In this document: in pieces, positions 3,629-47,532 of the stretch
How the letters are laid out: each line of letters opens with the position of its first letter
Position numbering within the stretch: the stretch's first letter is position 1
Assembly (NCBI GenBank): GCA_048940645.1
Contig: JBHLOI010000004.1
Coordinates: forward strand, 1 to 64,000
Reading direction: 5' to 3'
Length of the DNA: 64,000 nt
Source: Promethearchaeota archaeon
GTDB taxonomy: Archaea; Asgardarchaeota; Lokiarchaeia; Sigyniarchaeales; SOKP01
The notes under the pieces: generated by a model
Database searches by the model: none
Told to the model about the DNA's origin: nothing
The model's input: only the letters and a program-made list of their open reading frames with translations
Position numbers and translations under genes: made by a program

Positions 3629-4279
3629 ATGAGTTATGTGAGTGTTTTAAAAAAAGATATGAATTTAAAAAAACTATACAACGCTACGGATAACCTTATA
3701 GAGCAACAATTTTATTTAGGTGGTAGTGATACTATTATTGGGAGAACTTCCGAGGTATCATTAAAAATAAAAAATTCAGGTTTAATAGTTAAAAGGTTTA
3801 AAGATTTATTCATCAAAAATATCCATCTATTTTTAGAGCAAAAGTATTTAAAATTCTTTAATCCTTTCAAGGATATAAAGGGTTTAGATGAGAACCATCT
3901 ACAAGAAATATATCAAGAAATTCAATTAAGGCTCACTGCATTACATGATACCAAGTTTGATGTCGTTATACTCTATACGATTGTTTTAAGTGCTTTAATA
4001 TCAAGTATTCGAAATATTAATTTTAATGATTCTATAAAAGAAATTATTAAAAGAGTAAAACAAAAATCCGATAGGATGAATAATAATCAAATTCAAGTAG
4101 AATTGGATAAATTATTTATGAAAAATAATAAAAACGTTTCGATTTTATACAATATCTCATATTTAGATGCTTTAGCTGAATCTTTCAATTTCAATAAAGT
4201 TGCTCGAACTTGTAAAATTCAAAAAGGCAAGTATATTAATCGTATTGTTAATTTAATTCTTAATTCAAGATATTTTTAG
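3629..4279 (+). CDS. Hypothetical protein
   Basis: 216-aa ORF filling the gap between genes; no motif recognised. Confidence 0.7.
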   Translation: MSYVSVLKKDMNLKKLYNATDNLIEQQFYLGGSDTIIGRTSEVSLKIKNSGLIVKRFKDLFIKNIHLFLEQKYLKFFNPFKDIKGLDENHLQEIYQEIQLRLTALHDTKFDVVILYTIVLSALISSIRNINFNDSIKEIIKRVKQKSDRMNNNQIQVELDKLFMKNNKNVSILYNISYLDALAESFNFNKVARTCKIQKGKYINRIVNLILNSRYF

Positions 4280-4405
4280 AATTTGGTAAAATATTACTCT
4301 ATTATAAGATCAAACATATTGGTTTATAGTTAGATATAGTAGCTATATTTAAAATGATTCAAATCCTATTCATAAATGTGAAGATCAAATAAGTCAGGTG
4401 ATTTA

Positions 4406-6316
4406 TTGTCAATTTTAGGTAATGAAGATGTCAAAATTTTCTTGAATAAGTATAGTAAAAAGAAAGTATCATTAAATCAAGCTATTAAAAAGTATATAAA
4501 ACCTGGAGATAGAATTTTTATTGATTCTGGGTGTGCTGAACCTATAGATTTGACTAAAAAATTGATAGAACTTGGTCCAGAGTTACCAGATGTAGAGATA
4601 ATGCATTTTTTAAGCCTAAGTGATCTTGATTATTATGAGACTGCAGGTGGTATTGAAGATTTATTTAGACATAATGCTTTTTTTATAGGAAAATCGCTTC
4701 GCAAATATATTAAAAAAGGCCAGGCAGATTACACTCCCATGCTTTTATCAGAAATTCCTAGGTTATTTAAGCTTGGTAAAATGCATTTAGACACTGCTTT
4801 AATTCAAGTAAGTCTTCCAGATCGATATGGATTCTGTAGCTATGGAATTAATGTAGACATTGTCAAACCTATAGCTGAGGCAGCTGATTTTGTAGTTGCT
4901 GAAATAAATCCAAAAATGCCCCGTACTCTTGGAGACTCTTTTATCCATATGGATGATATAGACGCTTTCATACTTTCTGACCATGACATTATTGAATTTG
5001 ATTACGGACCTCCAGGTGAAACGGAAACTAAAATTGCAGAATTCGTCGCTTCATTAATAGAAGATGAATCAACGATCCAAATGGGAATTGGGACAATCCC
5101 AAATGCAGTAACTATGGAATTGGAAAGCAAAAAAGATTTGGGAGTACACAGTGAAGTATTTTCAGATGGCATTGTAGATCTTGTAGAAAAAGGAGTTGTC
5201 ACGTGTAAAAAGAAAACAATTCATAAAGACAAGATTCTATGTTCATTTGTAATGGGGACGAGAAGATTATACGATTTTTGTGATGACAATCCCATGGTTG
5301 AATTTCATCCCTGTGAATACACGAATGATCCCTTTATAATTTCTCAAAATAGGAAACAAGTTGCAATTAACGCAGCTCTTACAGTAGATCTTACGGGGCA
5401 AGTGAACGCGGATTCTTTAGGTCACCAATTCTATAGTGGAATTGGTGGACAAGTCGATTTCGTAAGAGGAGCGGGTAGAGCTAAAGATGGAAAACCTATA
5501 ATGGTAGTCTCCTCAACAGCAACATTACCAGATGGTAAAATTGTCTCCAGAATAGTTCCTCATCTTAAATCAGGTTCAGGAGTGGTTATAACACGAGGTG
5601 ATGTACACTATATTGTTTCTGAATGGGGTATAGCCTATCTCTATGGAAAAAGTGTAAGAGAAAGAGTCTTAGAAATGATAAATATTGCACACCCTGATTT
5701 TCGGGAAGAATTGTTAGAGCATGCTAAAAAGTGGAAATATATATATTCAGATCAAAAGTTACCCATTTCAATTGATGGGAGAATCGCTATTTACCCAGAA
5801 AAATATGAAACTTCCTTAGCTTTAAAAAATGGTAAAATAGTAAAAATAAGACCTGTAAAACCGACTGATGAGAGAGGGATTCAAGAACTTCACTATTCCT
5901 TGGACGAAAAAGATAGATATTATCGATTTTTCATACCTGTACATGATTTTCGTCATAAAAAAATCCAACCAATGGTAAATATTGATTATACTACGGATAT
6001 GATTTTAGTTGGAGAAATAAAAGAAGAAGAAGAATCAAAAATTATAGCGTTAGGTGCTTTCTTCAAAACTAATAAACCCACATTGGCAGAACTTGCGTTT
6101 GTTACTCATGAAGATTATAGAGGGCTAGGAATTACAAGATTTTTATTGAATTATTTAGTGAAAATTGCTAGGGAATTGAATTATAAAACATTTGGAGGCA
6201 CAATTTTGTTTGAAAACAAAGCCATGCTTCACATAATTGATACTTCTGGTTTTAATTTAACTTTAAAGAAAATTGAAGGGGGAGTAACTGAATTTGCTTT
6301 TGATATTACTAAGTAA
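4406..6316 (+). CDS. Acetyl-CoA hydrolase/4-hydroxybutyrate CoA-transferase fused to C-terminal GNAT acetyltransferase
   Basis: TIQMGIGTIP, LGVHSE, SGIGGQVDFVRGA and VSEWGIA motifs; C-terminal AELAF..YRGLGI GNAT motif; TTG start after AGGTGA. Confidence 0.9.
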   Translation: MSILGNEDVKIFLNKYSKKKVSLNQAIKKYIKPGDRIFIDSGCAEPIDLTKKLIELGPELPDVEIMHFLSLSDLDYYETAGGIEDLFRHNAFFIGKSLRKYIKKGQADYTPMLLSEIPRLFKLGKMHLDTALIQVSLPDRYGFCSYGINVDIVKPIAEAADFVVAEINPKMPRTLGDSFIHMDDIDAFILSDHDIIEFDYGPPGETETKIAEFVASLIEDESTIQMGIGTIPNAVTMELESKKDLGVHSEVFSDGIVDLVEKGVVTCKKKTIHKDKILCSFVMGTRRLYDFCDDNPMVEFHPCEYTNDPFIISQNRKQVAINAALTVDLTGQVNADSLGHQFYSGIGGQVDFVRGAGRAKDGKPIMVVSSTATLPDGKIVSRIVPHLKSGSGVVITRGDVHYIVSEWGIAYLYGKSVRERVLEMINIAHPDFREELLEHAKKWKYIYSDQKLPISIDGRIAIYPEKYETSLALKNGKIVKIRPVKPTDERGIQELHYSLDEKDRYYRFFIPVHDFRHKKIQPMVNIDYTTDMILVGEIKEEEESKIIALGAFFKTNKPTLAELAFVTHEDYRGLGITRFLLNYLVKIARELNYKTFGGTILFENKAMLHIIDTSGFNLTLKKIEGGVTEFAFDITK

Positions 6317-43466: not shown

Positions 43467-44042
43467 ATGTTGGAAGCAATTCGTAAATTTGCGAGAGAAA
43501 ATTCCGAATCTGATGATATTCATGGATTTCCTCACGTTGAAAGAGTATATAATTTGTGTCTTAAAATAGGAAAAAAATTAGATGCTGATATTAAAATATT
43601 AAATATTGCAGCATTACTTCATGATATCGGAAGAAATAAAGAAGGAGTAAACACCTTTAACAGAAATCATGCTGAAATTTCTGCAGAATTAGCAATTAAC
43701 TTTTTAACTAACGTAGATATTGGACTCCCTAAAGAGAGTTTTGAGAATATTATTCATTGTATAAAAGCTCATTCTTTTTCAAACAAGTTAAAGCCTAAAA
43801 CTCTGGAAGCAAAAATTTTGTCTGATGCAGACAAACTGGATGCATTAGGAGCTATTGGTTTATATCGTACAATAGGATTTACAGTTAAAAGTAGGGGTGG
43901 AGTTGATCAGGTGATTGAACATTTGGAGAACAAAATAATGAAATTGAAAAGTCAGATTTATTTAGACATTTCAAAAGAAATTGCAATAAAACGTGAAAAA
44001 ATAATAGTGAAGTTTTATCATCAAATTATTGATGAAAGATAA
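43467..44042 (+). CDS. HD domain phosphohydrolase
   Basis: HG..HV.RV, AALLHDIG, H and SDADKLDALGAIG motifs. Confidence 0.9.
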   Translation: MLEAIRKFARENSESDDIHGFPHVERVYNLCLKIGKKLDADIKILNIAALLHDIGRNKEGVNTFNRNHAEISAELAINFLTNVDIGLPKESFENIIHCIKAHSFSNKLKPKTLEAKILSDADKLDALGAIGLYRTIGFTVKSRGGVDQVIEHLENKIMKLKSQIYLDISKEIAIKREKIIVKFYHQIIDER

Positions 44043-44258
44043 AGAAAAAGAATTTTCCTTCTGTTCTTAAAGAATTTACCTTGGTATAATCAAGTTTTGG
44101 AGAAGCTTGCGGATCATTTTCACAAATCATTAGATGATGCGAGAAGGTGGATTAAAGATCCTGATGAATTAGAAACTGCACTTAAAGCTTTAAGTAATCG
44201 AGAGAAATCGGTGCTAACTTTAATTTCTAACCTTGATCAAGTAGAAGGTATTATGTAA
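44043..44258 (+). pseudogene. Possible gene fragment or small CDS in frame after the HD gene stop
   Basis: 72-codon open frame (RKRIFLLFLKNLPWYNQVLEKLADHFHKSLDDARRWIKDPDELETALKALSNREKSVLTLISNLDQVEGIM*) with protein-like composition but no RBS or ATG start. Confidence 0.4.
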
Positions 44259-44280
44259 AACAAATTTTTATTTTTATTTT

Positions 44281-45483
44281 TTAACTAATTCTCAATATTA
44301 TACTTAACAAGATTGGAAATTTTTCTTCAGACCCCCAAATCACATAGATTTTATCATCAATTGGTATAGCAACATGCTTTGCCGCAACAATCCAATCTGT
44401 TCCAATATTATTCGCCGTTTTAGTATCTTCTTTAAATTTTAGATGCATAATTGCTCCAAAATAATCACTTATTGTTGTATGAGTGATTTTAATATCCTTT
44501 AAATCTGGATTTGTGAATTCTTCTTTTATTGGATCTGGCTGTAAATGTCCTTTTAGTTTCTCGTACGACAGTTGTAAAGCTGCTTGAATGATGACTTCTT
44601 CTTTCACAGCTTTATCATATTCAAATATAATAAGCCCACAATCTTTTTCAACTCCAATTATTCCTAAAGCGTTATATTCTTTTGAAACATCAATCCAACC
44701 ATTTTCTGAACTCTCACCCATTATATATCTAAAAGATTTTAGAATCTTTAACTCATCTTCCCTTTCACTAATTATATTATCAATAACTTCATTGAGAGGT
44801 CTAGCAACATAGATCATTGTACCTGTTGGGCGTTCCATGACTTTATCAACCCATCTTTTATTAATTAACCGTTCAATGATCCTATAAATTGTCGTTCTCT
44901 TGATATTCAGTTTTTTATTAAGATTTCCGACCTTTTCTCCTTTTTCACCAATCTGAAGTAGAGTCAAATACACCTTTGCCTCTTCAAGTGTTAATCCAAC
45001 CTTCAATAAACCTAATCTTTGTAAGTTCTGAGTGTCATCTAGCAAAACTTTTGGAGTAGCCCATTTAATCTCTTTAATTTTACCTAAACTTGTATGGGGA
45101 TCTAAATAAGGATCCTTTTTACGTAGTTCTCCTAAAGTCCTTGAAGCATCCATTAAACCTAATAGTATTGTATCTCCAGGCTCTATTCTACAGATAATTC
45201 TCCTCTCATCATCCTTAAATCCAATGATACTACCTCTTTTTTCTAAATTCATAGCAACAAGCCTTTCATATGAAACTTGTATAATTTTGTATTTAATTTT
45301 ATCAATAAGAAGCTCTCCGAGTTCTTGTGAATCCCATAAAGAATTAATTTCTTCTAAATCATCAGTAATATCCCAATTATCAGATGAATAGACTATTTTA
45401 CTATTTCCTTCAATAATGATTGTTGAGATAATTCTAGATTCAGGTGTAAGAAATTTATCTAACCTGTTGATAATTTTTTCCAA
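44281..45483 (-). CDS. Profilin-like domain + TrmB-type winged-helix DNA-binding domain + C-terminal alpha/beta domain fusion
   Basis: aa 1-120 match the Asgard profilin pattern (IIIEG..IVYSSDNWDI..D...W......I..IKY.I.Q...ERLVA.N....G.IIG). aa ~152-250 GLT.EEAKVY..LL......V..L...L.I.RTTIY.I..RL....WV is a TrmB HTH. Strong GGAGG RBS with TTG start. Confidence 0.8.
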   Translation of the reverse strand: MEKIINRLDKFLTPESRIISTIIIEGNSKIVYSSDNWDITDDLEEINSLWDSQELGELLIDKIKYKIIQVSYERLVAMNLEKRGSIIGFKDDERRIICRIEPGDTILLGLMDASRTLGELRKKDPYLDPHTSLGKIKEIKWATPKVLLDDTQNLQRLGLLKVGLTLEEAKVYLTLLQIGEKGEKVGNLNKKLNIKRTTIYRIIERLINKRWVDKVMERPTGTMIYVARPLNEVIDNIISEREDELKILKSFRYIMGESSENGWIDVSKEYNALGIIGVEKDCGLIIFEYDKAVKEEVIIQAALQLSYEKLKGHLQPDPIKEEFTNPDLKDIKITHTTISDYFGAIMHLKFKEDTKTANNIGTDWIVAAKHVAIPIDDKIYVIWGSEEKFPILLSIILRIS

Positions 45484-45543
45484 TTCTCCTTAACCTCCTT
45501 TTTAAAATGGAATAAAAAAAATTGAAAATATTAAAATATTTCA

Positions 45544-46680
45544 TTAAAAACACCTATGTATTATTTTAGGGCCAAATTCTTTATATTCACGTCGAGTAAT
45601 CCACATCCTATGAAATGTCTTTAATGATCCTAAAATTGAGCCTCCAATCCACACTGAATACATACGTTCTGGTGGACTGATAATTCTTACTTCTACGGAT
45701 TCAGAAATCATTTCCTTTATCTCTTTTGTTAATCTTTCCTTAATACCTGGAAACATAGTAGAACCACCTGACAATACAATATTGCTATAAAGGTCTCTTC
45801 GAAGGTCAACATCACATTCAGATATAGCGCTTACAATAAGATCATCAATTGGGTCTAACTCTTTTCCTATCACTGATGGATTGAAAAAACATTCAGGAGC
45901 TAAGAATCTCTCTATTCCTAAGCTAACAGTTTCTCCATCCGGAAGCATAAATAATTTTTCCATTCCAGCAACTTTCTTAGAAAGTAATAATTCTTTTTCT
46001 GGATCTATTGCAACATAACATAGCTTTTCTTTAATATCTCTTACAATTTCAATTTCAGCAGTTGAGGTGAATGAATAACCTTTTTGTCTTAGCAACCTTT
46101 GTAAATATTTTGTAACGTCTCTTCCTGCTAGATCTATTCTTTGTATAGCATGGCTCAATGCAAATCCTTCATATATCGGAACAATATGAGACACTCCATC
46201 GCCAATATCTATTACAGTTCCTGTTGTTCTTCCTGAAGCATATAAAGATAACACTGCTTGCATTGCAATGTACAATGCAGGTACATTAAATGTCTCAAAC
46301 ATGATTTCTGCCATTTTCTCTCTATTTTGTCGCGGATTCAATGGTGCTTCTGTAAGGAGTATCGGATGTTCTGAAGGATCAATTCTTAGGTCAGTATAAT
46401 ATGTATAATGCCATAATTTTTCCATAGCAGGCCAATCTTCTACAATACCATGTTCGATCGGAAATTTAAGACTTAAAAGACCTCTAAGTTCCATTGCCTC
46501 TTCTCCAATATAATAATCTCTAGAAAAATGTTTTACATCTGGCATCACAGTTCCATATTTTGGAGTACCAATCATGGTAGGAAAAACCGATCGTGGTTGA
46601 TCTTCTCCACCAAAACCGTTTTTGGAAATTCCTGTTCCATTATCTAAAATAATAGCCCTATTAAATTTTAATTCTTCCAT
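45544..46680 (-). CDS. Actin (Asgard/Lokiactin-type, eukaryote-like)
   Basis: [105 protein letters not shown] and C-terminal IHRCF. Confidence 0.98.
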
Positions 46681-46861
46681 AATTTATTCCTCCACCAATT
46701 TTTTTTCGAAATTATATGCTAATTTTTCACAATAGAAATTTAAAATAATGGAATATAAAAATAAATTGGTTTATAGTTAAATCCAAGAACTATTTTAGTA
46801 TCTATTGATGAATTACAGCATATAATTATAATATGATAAAATAAATTTAACTATTTAAATG

Positions 46862-46908
46862 TTGTCACAATATTGTCGCATCATTGCGACAAATGAATAT
46901 ATATTCAT
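46862..46908. promoter_or_regulatory. Palindrome cluster upstream of actin (TTGTCGCA-N4-TGCGACAA, extra TTGTCACA half-site, ATGAATATATATTCAT)
   Basis: Perfect 8-bp inverted repeat at 46873-46880/46885-46892; related half-site at 46862-46869; perfect 16-bp palindrome at 46893-46908. Confidence 0.5.
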
Positions 46909-46917
46909 AAACTAGAT

Positions 46918-47532
46918 TTAGTTATATTTTTTAAGAAATTTTTCAGCTGATTTTCTAGTTTTAAGGCTTTTACATTCCAGTTGAGCTTTTACAAATTCAA
47001 TGACTTCTTCCTTATTTTCTATTTCATTAAAGAATTCATTGAAAGATTCAATAATATATGCTTTTATTAAGTCTTTACGGCTAATTTCGTGATGTGTCTC
47101 ATCTATACTTAATAATACTTTAGTTAGCTTATCTCTTAGGTGCGGTTTTGCTTTAGCAATGGTGCCAAGATTCGCTGCTAGATGCCCAGCTGTCATTACA
47201 CTTTTAGCATCAATTAAATTACAATAAATATCAAAAATATCTTCAAACTTATTTTTAGTATCAATTCTGGCAAGGTTGGCGAGAATTTGAATTCCAATAA
47301 CTTTATGGAAATTGTTTTGACTTTTTAGCAAATCAATAAAAAAATCCCAATGTGGATAAAGGACTTCTGGTTTATTCTGGCTTATAATTAATAAGACTTT
47401 ATGGCTATTATATCGAATAATTTCAGCTTTAGCTATAAGATTATTTATCAATTCAACTAATATTTTAGGATCTTCTATTGCTTTATTAATAAGGCTTTCA
47501 GGTTCAAAATCTTTCTTATTTAGATTATGCAA
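46918..47532 (-). CDS. HEAT/ARM-repeat helical protein (AlkD-like fold possible)
   Basis: All-helical pattern (IRYNSHKVL..IS...PEVLYP.WD.F..LL); no catalytic motif recognised. Confidence 0.65.
   Translation of the reverse strand: MHNLNKKDFEPESLINKAIEDPKILVELINNLIAKAEIIRYNSHKVLLIISQNKPEVLYPHWDFFIDLLKSQNNFHKVIGIQILANLARIDTKNKFEDIFDIYCNLIDAKSVMTAGHLAANLGTIAKAKPHLRDKLTKVLLSIDETHHEISRKDLIKAYIIESFNEFFNEIENKEEVIEFVKAQLECKSLKTRKSAEKFLKKYN

Follow-up and report, generated by a model that had tools for sequence, protein, structure and literature searches.

A profilin domain fused to a TrmB-type regulator behind an accessory actin gene in Lokiarchaeia: a candidate actin-responsive autoregulator

This analysis concerns two adjacent genes in the first 64,000 nucleotides (nt) of contig JBHLOI010000004.1 (assembly GCA_048940645.1, a Promethearchaeota archaeon of the Lokiarchaeia); this whole stretch is referred to below as the window. 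The first gene encodes a second, or "spare", actin (actin-2). The second, directly downstream, encodes a protein of 400 amino acids (aa) in which an Asgard profilin domain is joined to a TrmB-type DNA-binding domain. The locus would encode a one-component regulator with an unprecedented sensor module. We hypothesise that the protein is an actin-responsive autoregulator of the spare-actin operon, whose output would track the actin monomer pool, a reading that we consider possible if not quite probable. A full-text literature search found no description of a fusion of profilin to a DNA-binding domain, or of the gene cassette. The paper on Ca. Lokiarchaeum ossiferum describes stand-alone profilin-like proteins and a single Lokiactin only (PMC9834061). 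An earlier note on this DNA, made from the sequence alone, had likewise known of no account of this architecture.

The cassette runs in the order operator and TATA box, spare actin gene, regulator gene. Its features within the window are as follows.

46873–46892, no strand: perfect 7-6-7 palindrome TTGTCGC-N6-GCGACAA, the candidate operator, with equivalents in other cassette genomes
46862–46870, minus strand: additional half-site TTGTGACAA, separated from the TATA box by 2 nt, from a TATA-anchored alignment
46852–46859, minus strand: TATA box TTTAAATA, ~170 nt before the actin-2 ATG, from a reading of the sequence only
45544–46680, minus strand: actin-2 ("spare actin") gene, 378 aa (PF00022, E 3.8e-130)
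45484–45543, minus strand: 60-nt spacer from actin-2 to the regulator, with an oligo-T run and an AGGAGG ribosome-binding site
44281–45483, minus strand: open reading frame (ORF) of the profilin-TrmB regulator, 400 aa, TTG start, from the ORF call
45121–45483, minus strand: profilin domain, aa 1–121, from sequence homology and fold
45037–45120, minus strand: linker, aa 122–149, from near-invariant alignment columns
44800–45036, minus strand: TrmB-type winged helix-turn-helix, aa 150–228 (PF01978, E 1.8e-11)
44722–44799, minus strand: long helix after the winged helix, aa 229–254, from the AlphaFold2 (AF2) model, the expected coiled-coil dimerisation element
44284–44643, minus strand: C-terminal α/β domain, aa 281–400, with a predicted local distance difference test score (pLDDT) of 84 and a predicted template-modelling score (pTM) of 0.76 when modelled separately

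The earlier note was right in its coordinates and in its description of an actin gene, a 60-nt gap and a 400-aa ORF on the same strand preceded by AGGAGG. The ribosome-binding sequence in the spacer, AAGGAGGT, lies ~8 nt before the regulator start. The spacer holds no palindrome and no conserved TATA box, and an Rfam scan of 44000–47100 gave nothing beyond chance-level miRNA and snoRNA rows.

The distribution of the fusion was surveyed in 400 genomes of the phylum; the GTDB family of the window (f1) is represented by 135 genomes when the window's own is counted. A full-length fusion is present in 44 genomes, and one further genome has a copy cut by a contig end. All are members of f1, scattered within four genera, and the fusion was found in none of the 266 Asgard genomes of other families. 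Of these 45 genomes, 43 have an actin gene 50–350 nt upstream of the fusion on the same strand; the exceptions are G171, where the contig ends, and G278. The earlier note had suggested surveying Asgard genomes for the fusion and for its linkage to actin, and the outcome supports it in part. The fusion does occur beyond the window, but within a single GTDB family only, where its distribution is patchy, and the linkage seen in nearly all the f1 genomes with the fusion does not extend to two divergent fusions from metagenomes, which are discussed below. A spread over several Asgard phyla, as the NCBI labels would have it, was rejected: the cases labelled 'Odinarchaeota' and 'Hodarchaeota' that were checked fall in the same GTDB genus as the 'Promethearchaeota' ones.

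The N-terminal domain was compared with known structures by sequence and by fold. A phmmer search of the PDB matched it to the Odin profilin 5ZZA (E 1.9e-6), and also to 5ZZB (Loki profilin-2), 7PBH and 5YED (Loki profilin-1). A profile of the family matched the same four entries, with E values of 3.6e-15 (5YED), 5.7e-14 (5ZZB), 1.9e-11 (5ZZA) and 3.5e-9 (7PBH). The AF2 model of the regulator, made from 30 homologues, has block-mean pLDDT values of ~60–87 over aa 18–121, mostly at least 80 through aa 100, with secondary structure elements in the order α-ββ-α-βββββ-α. Foldseek run on this model placed 5ZZB, 5ZZA and 5YED/5YEE at the top, followed by more than 20 eukaryotic profilins (E 3e-8, template-modelling (TM) score by target up to 0.72). 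The three approaches agree with the earlier assignment of the first ~120 aa, and residues 1–121 are a genuine homologue of Asgard-type profilins, beyond chance.

The linker that follows contains the near-invariant motifs P125-Y126, L-G-K and K-W-x-T-P. Its first half is shared with a 202-aa long profilin encoded elsewhere in this genome (L003:1459-2067, plus strand, G000:C43), which consists of a profilin domain, a linker of the form S-K-x-x-Y-M...L-G-K and a helical tail, and is 39% identical to the head of the fusion. A search with the fusion alignment matched 113 of the other 134 f1 genomes, in most of them through the head only, as in the long profilin. This long profilin is the closest paralogue of the fused domain, occurs in most f1 genomes and is probably the donor of that domain. 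Besides the fusion, this genome has three profilin-like genes.

The window actin and residues 1–128 of the fusion were then modelled as a complex, using alignments for both chains. The interaction prediction score from aligned errors (ipSAE) was 0.75, against 0.00 for the best control; the mark applied to this score is reached by 58 of 80 solved complexes and by 2 of 110 mismatched pairs. At least 88% of the contacts are common to the three runs, and the partner has a pLDDT of 78 or more. The contacted actin residues (129, 152, 170–177, 290–293, 355–359 and 366–378) make up what we take to be the canonical profilin site in the barbed-end cleft. P125, Y126 and residue 127 of the linker also lie within the predicted interface, and the core contacts Q69, T/S71, F89, P125 and Y126 are conserved at 85–96%. 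Structure prediction with the adjacent actin, a check that the earlier note had suggested, places the profilin domain on the barbed-end cleft. A model of this kind shows likeness and not binding, and actin binding by the profilin domain is to be read as predicted. The contacted residues are almost identical in the spare actin and in the housekeeping actin described below, so the profilin domain could read the total monomer pool.

The DNA-binding part of the protein is also recognisable. PF01978 matches aa 160–228 with 44.1 bits (gathering cut-off 25.6), as expected from the earlier assignment to TrmB, and the recognition-helix block K-R-T-T-I-Y-R-I is invariant except for its second T. In the AF2 model a helix spans aa 230–254, with pLDDT below 50 from aa 242 on; members of the TrmB family have a coiled-coil helix in this position, immediately behind the winged helix (PMC4158304). 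The protein then continues, beyond a disordered stretch, into a third domain that the earlier account in terms of profilin and TrmB had not included. This conserved C-terminal domain has the order β-α-ββ-α-ββ-α and is rare, being found in 34 clusters among 1.84 billion representatives. Searches for relatives gave little: nothing significant in Pfam (best BofC_C, E 0.028, below cut-off), nothing significant with a profile against PDB sequences (best E 0.047), and no Foldseek match in the PDB at E ≤ 1e-3. A wide structure comparison gave a best Z of 6.3, too low to be relied on, with weak resemblance to Mog1/PsbP or to class II aminoacyl-tRNA synthetases, and an Atlas structure search gave TM scores of only 0.44–0.58 outside the domain's own family. 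Short frames that match this domain alone were seen at three loci (L089–L091: G225:C4, G249:C132 and G200:C1). Two of them have an in-frame stop, and those of G225 and G249 lie a few kb from a profilin-less paralogue of the regulator; they may be remnants or stand-alone genes for the C-terminal domain.

The candidate operator was examined by comparison of the spare-actin promoters. In the inspected cassette genomes (20 besides this one), TTGTCAC-N6-GTGACAA lies upstream of the spare actin, and in almost all of these 20 it is followed after 2–3 nt by TTTAAATA or TTTATATA. The window's palindrome is unique in its 3.83-Mb genome at up to one mismatch. A pattern search of the whole family at the same tolerance placed the palindrome at the spare-actin promoter in 35 cassette genomes, while matches away from this promoter were about as frequent as those of a reversed-pattern control. 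In the window's subclade an A-to-G change in one arm has its counterpart in the other, so that the dyad symmetry is preserved. The complete palindrome is here displaced by 11 bp in the upstream direction, and the arm that ancestrally adjoined the TATA box survives as the half-site listed above; when the promoters are aligned on the TATA box, GTGACAA-CA-TTTAAATA is common to the window and the loci of genus g12. The motif is absent from all 21 housekeeping-actin promoters inspected.

Two further observations were made on these sequences. Most of the inspected housekeeping promoters (L063–L082 and L007) have an A-rich TFB-recognition element (BRE) and a TTTATAAA box ~130–185 nt before the ATG, a position that implies a long 5′ untranslated region (UTR); that of the spare actin is roughly 55–190 nt. 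Perfect copies of TTGTCAC-N6-GTGACAA also occur at G213:C428:855-874 and G236:C4:5623-5642, both in genomes where the fusion was not found, with no actin gene and no fusion or regulator gene nearby.

A link between the palindrome and the regulator comes from paralogues without profilin. A profile of the C-terminal domain finds proteins of ~290–300 aa (P0135, P0138, P0140 and P0141) that begin with the TrmB winged helix and have no profilin domain. They occur in 32 of the other 134 f1 genomes and in 3 others, often 1–7 kb from the cassette. The recognition-helix block, in the form R-T-T-I-Y-x-I, is conserved between them and the fusion. Their own promoters carry either TTGTCAA/T-N6-A/TTGACAA ~10 nt after the TATA box or TTGTCG-N8-CGACAA 4 nt before it, and in all a palindrome lies next to the gene's own TATA box at about 25 of 30 such loci, and also at L083 and L084. 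An operator type that is common to the paralogues and sits at the promoter of each one's own gene is the pattern expected of an autoregulating subfamily. By this comparative footprint the palindrome is tied to the regulator subfamily. No other member of the subfamily was found in this genome, so the fusion is the only candidate for binding the operator here. Binding of the operator by the regulator is therefore supported, on comparative grounds.

The actin that is linked to the fusion is not the main Lokiactin. The housekeeping Lokiactin, of 381 aa, is near-invariant, is encoded at a separate locus and is present in almost every f1 genome; the copy in this genome, at G000:C50:8873-9850, is truncated by a contig end. 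The window's actin-2 is 83% identical to it. Genomes that carry the fusion have a second actin directly upstream of it, 77–99% identical to that of the window. In a maximum-likelihood tree the actin-2 and housekeeping groups separate in 100% of bootstrap trees, although the support for the separating branch is mixed (ultrafast bootstrap 11, Shimodaira–Hasegawa-like approximate likelihood ratio test 99). Mean identity is 98.6% among the housekeeping actins and 83.9% among the actin-2 sequences. Since the housekeeping copy lies elsewhere and the groups separate on the tree, the possibility that the neighbouring actin is the main Lokiactin was rejected; the linked actin is, by these sequence comparisons, an accessory and faster-evolving paralogue. 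Sixteen differences are fixed between the groups. Nine of them lie between residues 43 and 84, which we take to be subdomain 2 including the D-loop, and three are N-terminal residues that the spare actin lacks. The earlier suggestion that the regulator acts on the neighbouring actin gene accordingly needs to be qualified: the promoter does carry a unique palindrome of the subfamily type, but the gene is an accessory paralogue, and the housekeeping promoter has no such operator.

A tandem duplication of Lokiactin was also seen in G226:C48 (L088:1021-2166 and 3734-4894, plus strand). It has no regulator gene, the second of its copies begins with a new N-terminus rich in proline, and a small ORF resembling a histone fold lies between the copies. 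The second copy was considered as a member of the cassette and rejected, as it is a separate duplication without the regulator.

On the basis of these observations, we propose the following. In this lineage one member of a small TrmB subfamily, whose proteins are associated with TTGTCxx-N6-xxGACAA palindromes at their own promoters, would have gained a profilin head and come to lie behind a duplicated actin gene. A dimer of the regulator would bind the palindrome, which abuts or overlaps the BRE and TATA box of the spare-actin promoter, and would thereby control the spare actin and, by read-through, the regulator's own gene; this step is suggested by comparative genomics. The profilin domain, together with the P-Y linker, is predicted to bind monomeric actin at its barbed-end cleft. 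Occupancy by actin might then alter DNA binding, or contact with TBP or TFB, so that the output of the operon would follow the monomer pool; this last step is purely conjectural. In the TrmB family a site upstream of the BRE and TATA box goes with activation and a downstream site with repression (PMC4158304). Since the expected BRE falls within the TATA-proximal arm here, the sequence does not reveal the sign of the regulation. Homeostatic negative feedback is slightly favoured, with either repression by the regulator when actin is bound or activation by it when actin is absent.

Several observations weigh against this proposal. Conservation is highest in the C-terminal domain and not in the profilin domain (mean column identity 65%, against 49% for the N-terminal domain), and the C-terminal domain is probably the ancestral candidate sensor of the subfamily. 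Within the profilin domain, conservation is no higher at the predicted interface than at the other residues (0.57 vs 0.63, Mann-Whitney p 0.87). Asgard profilin-actin complexes have been solved (5ZZA, 5ZZB, 5YEE), so the predicted complex may simply reproduce structures known to the predictor. The N-terminal domain is not matched by the Pfam Profilin family PF00235 even at E ≤ 5; the PF00235 model derives mainly from eukaryotic profilins, and the 202-aa long profilin reaches 21.9 bits with it (cut-off 25). At G233:C46 (L024:2832-3392, minus strand) a deletion has removed the 5′ half of the actin gene together with the promoter and its palindrome, so that only the last 186 aa of the actin are left; the downstream gene for a regulator of 413 aa is intact, and this cassette appears to be decaying. 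The divergent metagenome fusions P0148 and P0134 (34% and 43% identity) have no adjacent actin gene, which makes the actin linkage a property of the f1 clade and not of the architecture as such. Finally, a profilin-less paralogue, where it resides in the same genome, could also use the cassette operator.

One of these actin-less fusions was seen in its context. On the 88.7-kb metagenome contig L092, the fusion of 34% identity lies downstream of a dehydroquinate synthase II gene and near a Snf7/ESCRT-III gene, and three GTCA-containing repeats stand against its own TATA box.

Many of the points above would be expected if the protein were an ordinary autoregulator that senses through its C-terminal domain, with the profilin head degenerate and serving as a module for dimerisation, stability or some other contact. 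This is the most serious alternative, and we regard it as doubtful. The greater conservation of the C-terminal domain fits it, as does the sharing of this domain with profilin-less relatives that resemble normal one-component regulators; so do an interface without preferential conservation, the lack of a Pfam Profilin match and the fusions that are not linked to actin. Against it, the head is homologous to four solved profilins, of which the two from Loki and the one from Odin were crystallised with actin; the near-absolute linkage to actin within f1 would have to be a coincidence; and in the predicted complex the head docks at the canonical site, through core contacts that are conserved.

It is also conceivable that the protein does two uncoupled jobs, being both a dedicated profilin for the spare actin and a constitutive autorepressor of the operon. 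This would draw on the same evidence for actin binding and for the operator as the actin-responsive autoregulator does, and the data show no coupling between the two functions; the three other profilin-like genes in the genome make specialisation plausible. We nevertheless consider it improbable. The near-invariant linker between the profilin domain and the winged helix suggests communication between the domains and not a loose tether, and the second gene of an operon, with an oligo-T run before it, would be an unusual source of a stoichiometric binder of actin monomers.

A third possibility takes up the alternative raised in the earlier note, a tether between DNA and the actin cytoskeleton: the cassette would be a coupler of DNA to actin like ParMRC, with the palindrome as a centromere-like site that a dimeric regulator joins to the barbed ends of spare-actin filaments so as to move or position DNA. 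The order of site, actin and DNA-binding adaptor with a barbed-end module mirrors parC-parM-parR, and ParR, too, controls its own expression and docks in the corresponding cleft of ParM; the site is single in the genome, the distribution is patchy and accessory, and the actin is a faster-evolving paralogue. It is very improbable, since there is a single palindrome (with one extra half-site in this subclade) and no iteron array, the strict phasing of 2–3 nt to the TATA box in most genera fits a transcription control site, the promoters of profilin-less paralogues have the same site with no actin involved, the contigs are chromosomal with conserved neighbours such as the CpXC gene, and a spare actin 83% identical to the housekeeping one makes an insulated filament system doubtful. 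The related idea, that a palindrome-anchored dimer couples a chromosomal site to the growing barbed ends of spare actin for the positioning or segregation of DNA, with autoregulation as a by-product, is a fainter prospect still.

The surroundings of the cassette vary between genera. It has genes for leucine biosynthesis next to it, on chromosomal contigs that reach 1.05 Mb, and in several other genera a divergent CpXC gene is its conserved upstream neighbour. Directly upstream of the window's cassette there is a gene for a 204-aa helical (HEAT-like) protein (46918–47532, minus strand), which gave a weak JetA-like row in Pfam (E 0.0012, below cut-off). The spacer between actin and regulator is ~280–340 nt long in other genera and codes for a conserved protein of ~65 aa, which is absent here. 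This ORF is exemplified in genera g12 and g13 by L021:1235-1441 (plus strand), where it is followed by an oligo-T run, and is also present in the spacers of L012, L014–L020, L022, L029, L032, L036 and L040. It has no Pfam match and is missing from the window's subclade; it may be a third component of the cassette.

If binding of actin does alter promoter occupancy, as the proposed actin-responsive autoregulation would have it, this would be the first feedback from an actin cytoskeleton to transcription in a prokaryote. The lineage concerned is the archaeal one nearest to eukaryotes, and the feedback would act through actin and profilin, both eukaryotic signature proteins. When signalling from the cytoskeleton to genes arose would become directly testable with a few recombinant proteins and a 41-bp DNA (46852–46892). 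Some Lokiarchaeia have two actin isoforms, apparently under different control, which bears on the diversification of the Asgard cytoskeleton. Even without actin sensing, the locus establishes a new subfamily of TrmB proteins, one that can be recognised by its operator and whose sensor domain is uncharacterised.

It remains to compare the cassette with known systems. The stand-alone Asgard profilins (5YED/5YEE, 5ZZB, Odin 5ZZA, Thor 7PBH and Heimdall 6YRR) resemble the N-terminal domain in sequence, in fold and in the predicted actin site. They are proteins of ~120–150 aa, whereas the fusion has its profilin at the N-terminus of a DNA-binding protein of 400 aa, with the P-Y linker behind it.

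The TrmB family, including TrmB and TrmBL1 of P. furiosus, Tgr of T. kodakarensis and TrmB of H. salinarum, shares the PF01978 winged helix, the helix that follows it and a palindrome at the BRE and TATA box. Known operators of the family are palindromes at these elements, such as TATCAC-N5-GTGATA (TGM) of TrmBL1/Tgr, which the cassette palindrome resembles, and autoregulation is known or proposed for some members (PMC4158304). In the fusion, by contrast, the winged helix is internal and not N-terminal, a profilin domain has been added, the sugar-binding effector domain is absent and a rare α/β domain stands in its place, and the putative target is a cytoskeletal gene and not one of sugar metabolism. 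The closest relatives, the profilin-less paralogues, share the winged helix, the putative coiled coil, the C-terminal domain and the 7-6-7 TTGTC...GACAA operator type. They differ in having no profilin and no actin gene directly upstream, and in having an operator that is mostly just downstream of the TATA box, the geometry of a repressor.

In systems of the ParMRC type II and SlmA kinds one protein attaches both to DNA and to a polymer that is actin-like or tubulin-like, as would be the case here, and in ParMRC the gene order of site, actin and adaptor is alike. The cassette differs from ParMRC in its single palindrome phased to a TATA box, its chromosomal location, its eukaryote-like actin and its profilin module, and it has neither iterons nor multiple genomic sites.

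A parallel in logic is with MRTF/SRF of animals, where a regulator with a module for monomeric actin has actin genes among its targets. MRTF binds actin at the barbed-end cleft through RPEL motifs, is controlled by nuclear import and works with a separate DNA-binding partner. There is no homology between the two systems. In the fusion the profilin and the DNA-binding domain are in one chain, and their coupling is what we propose.

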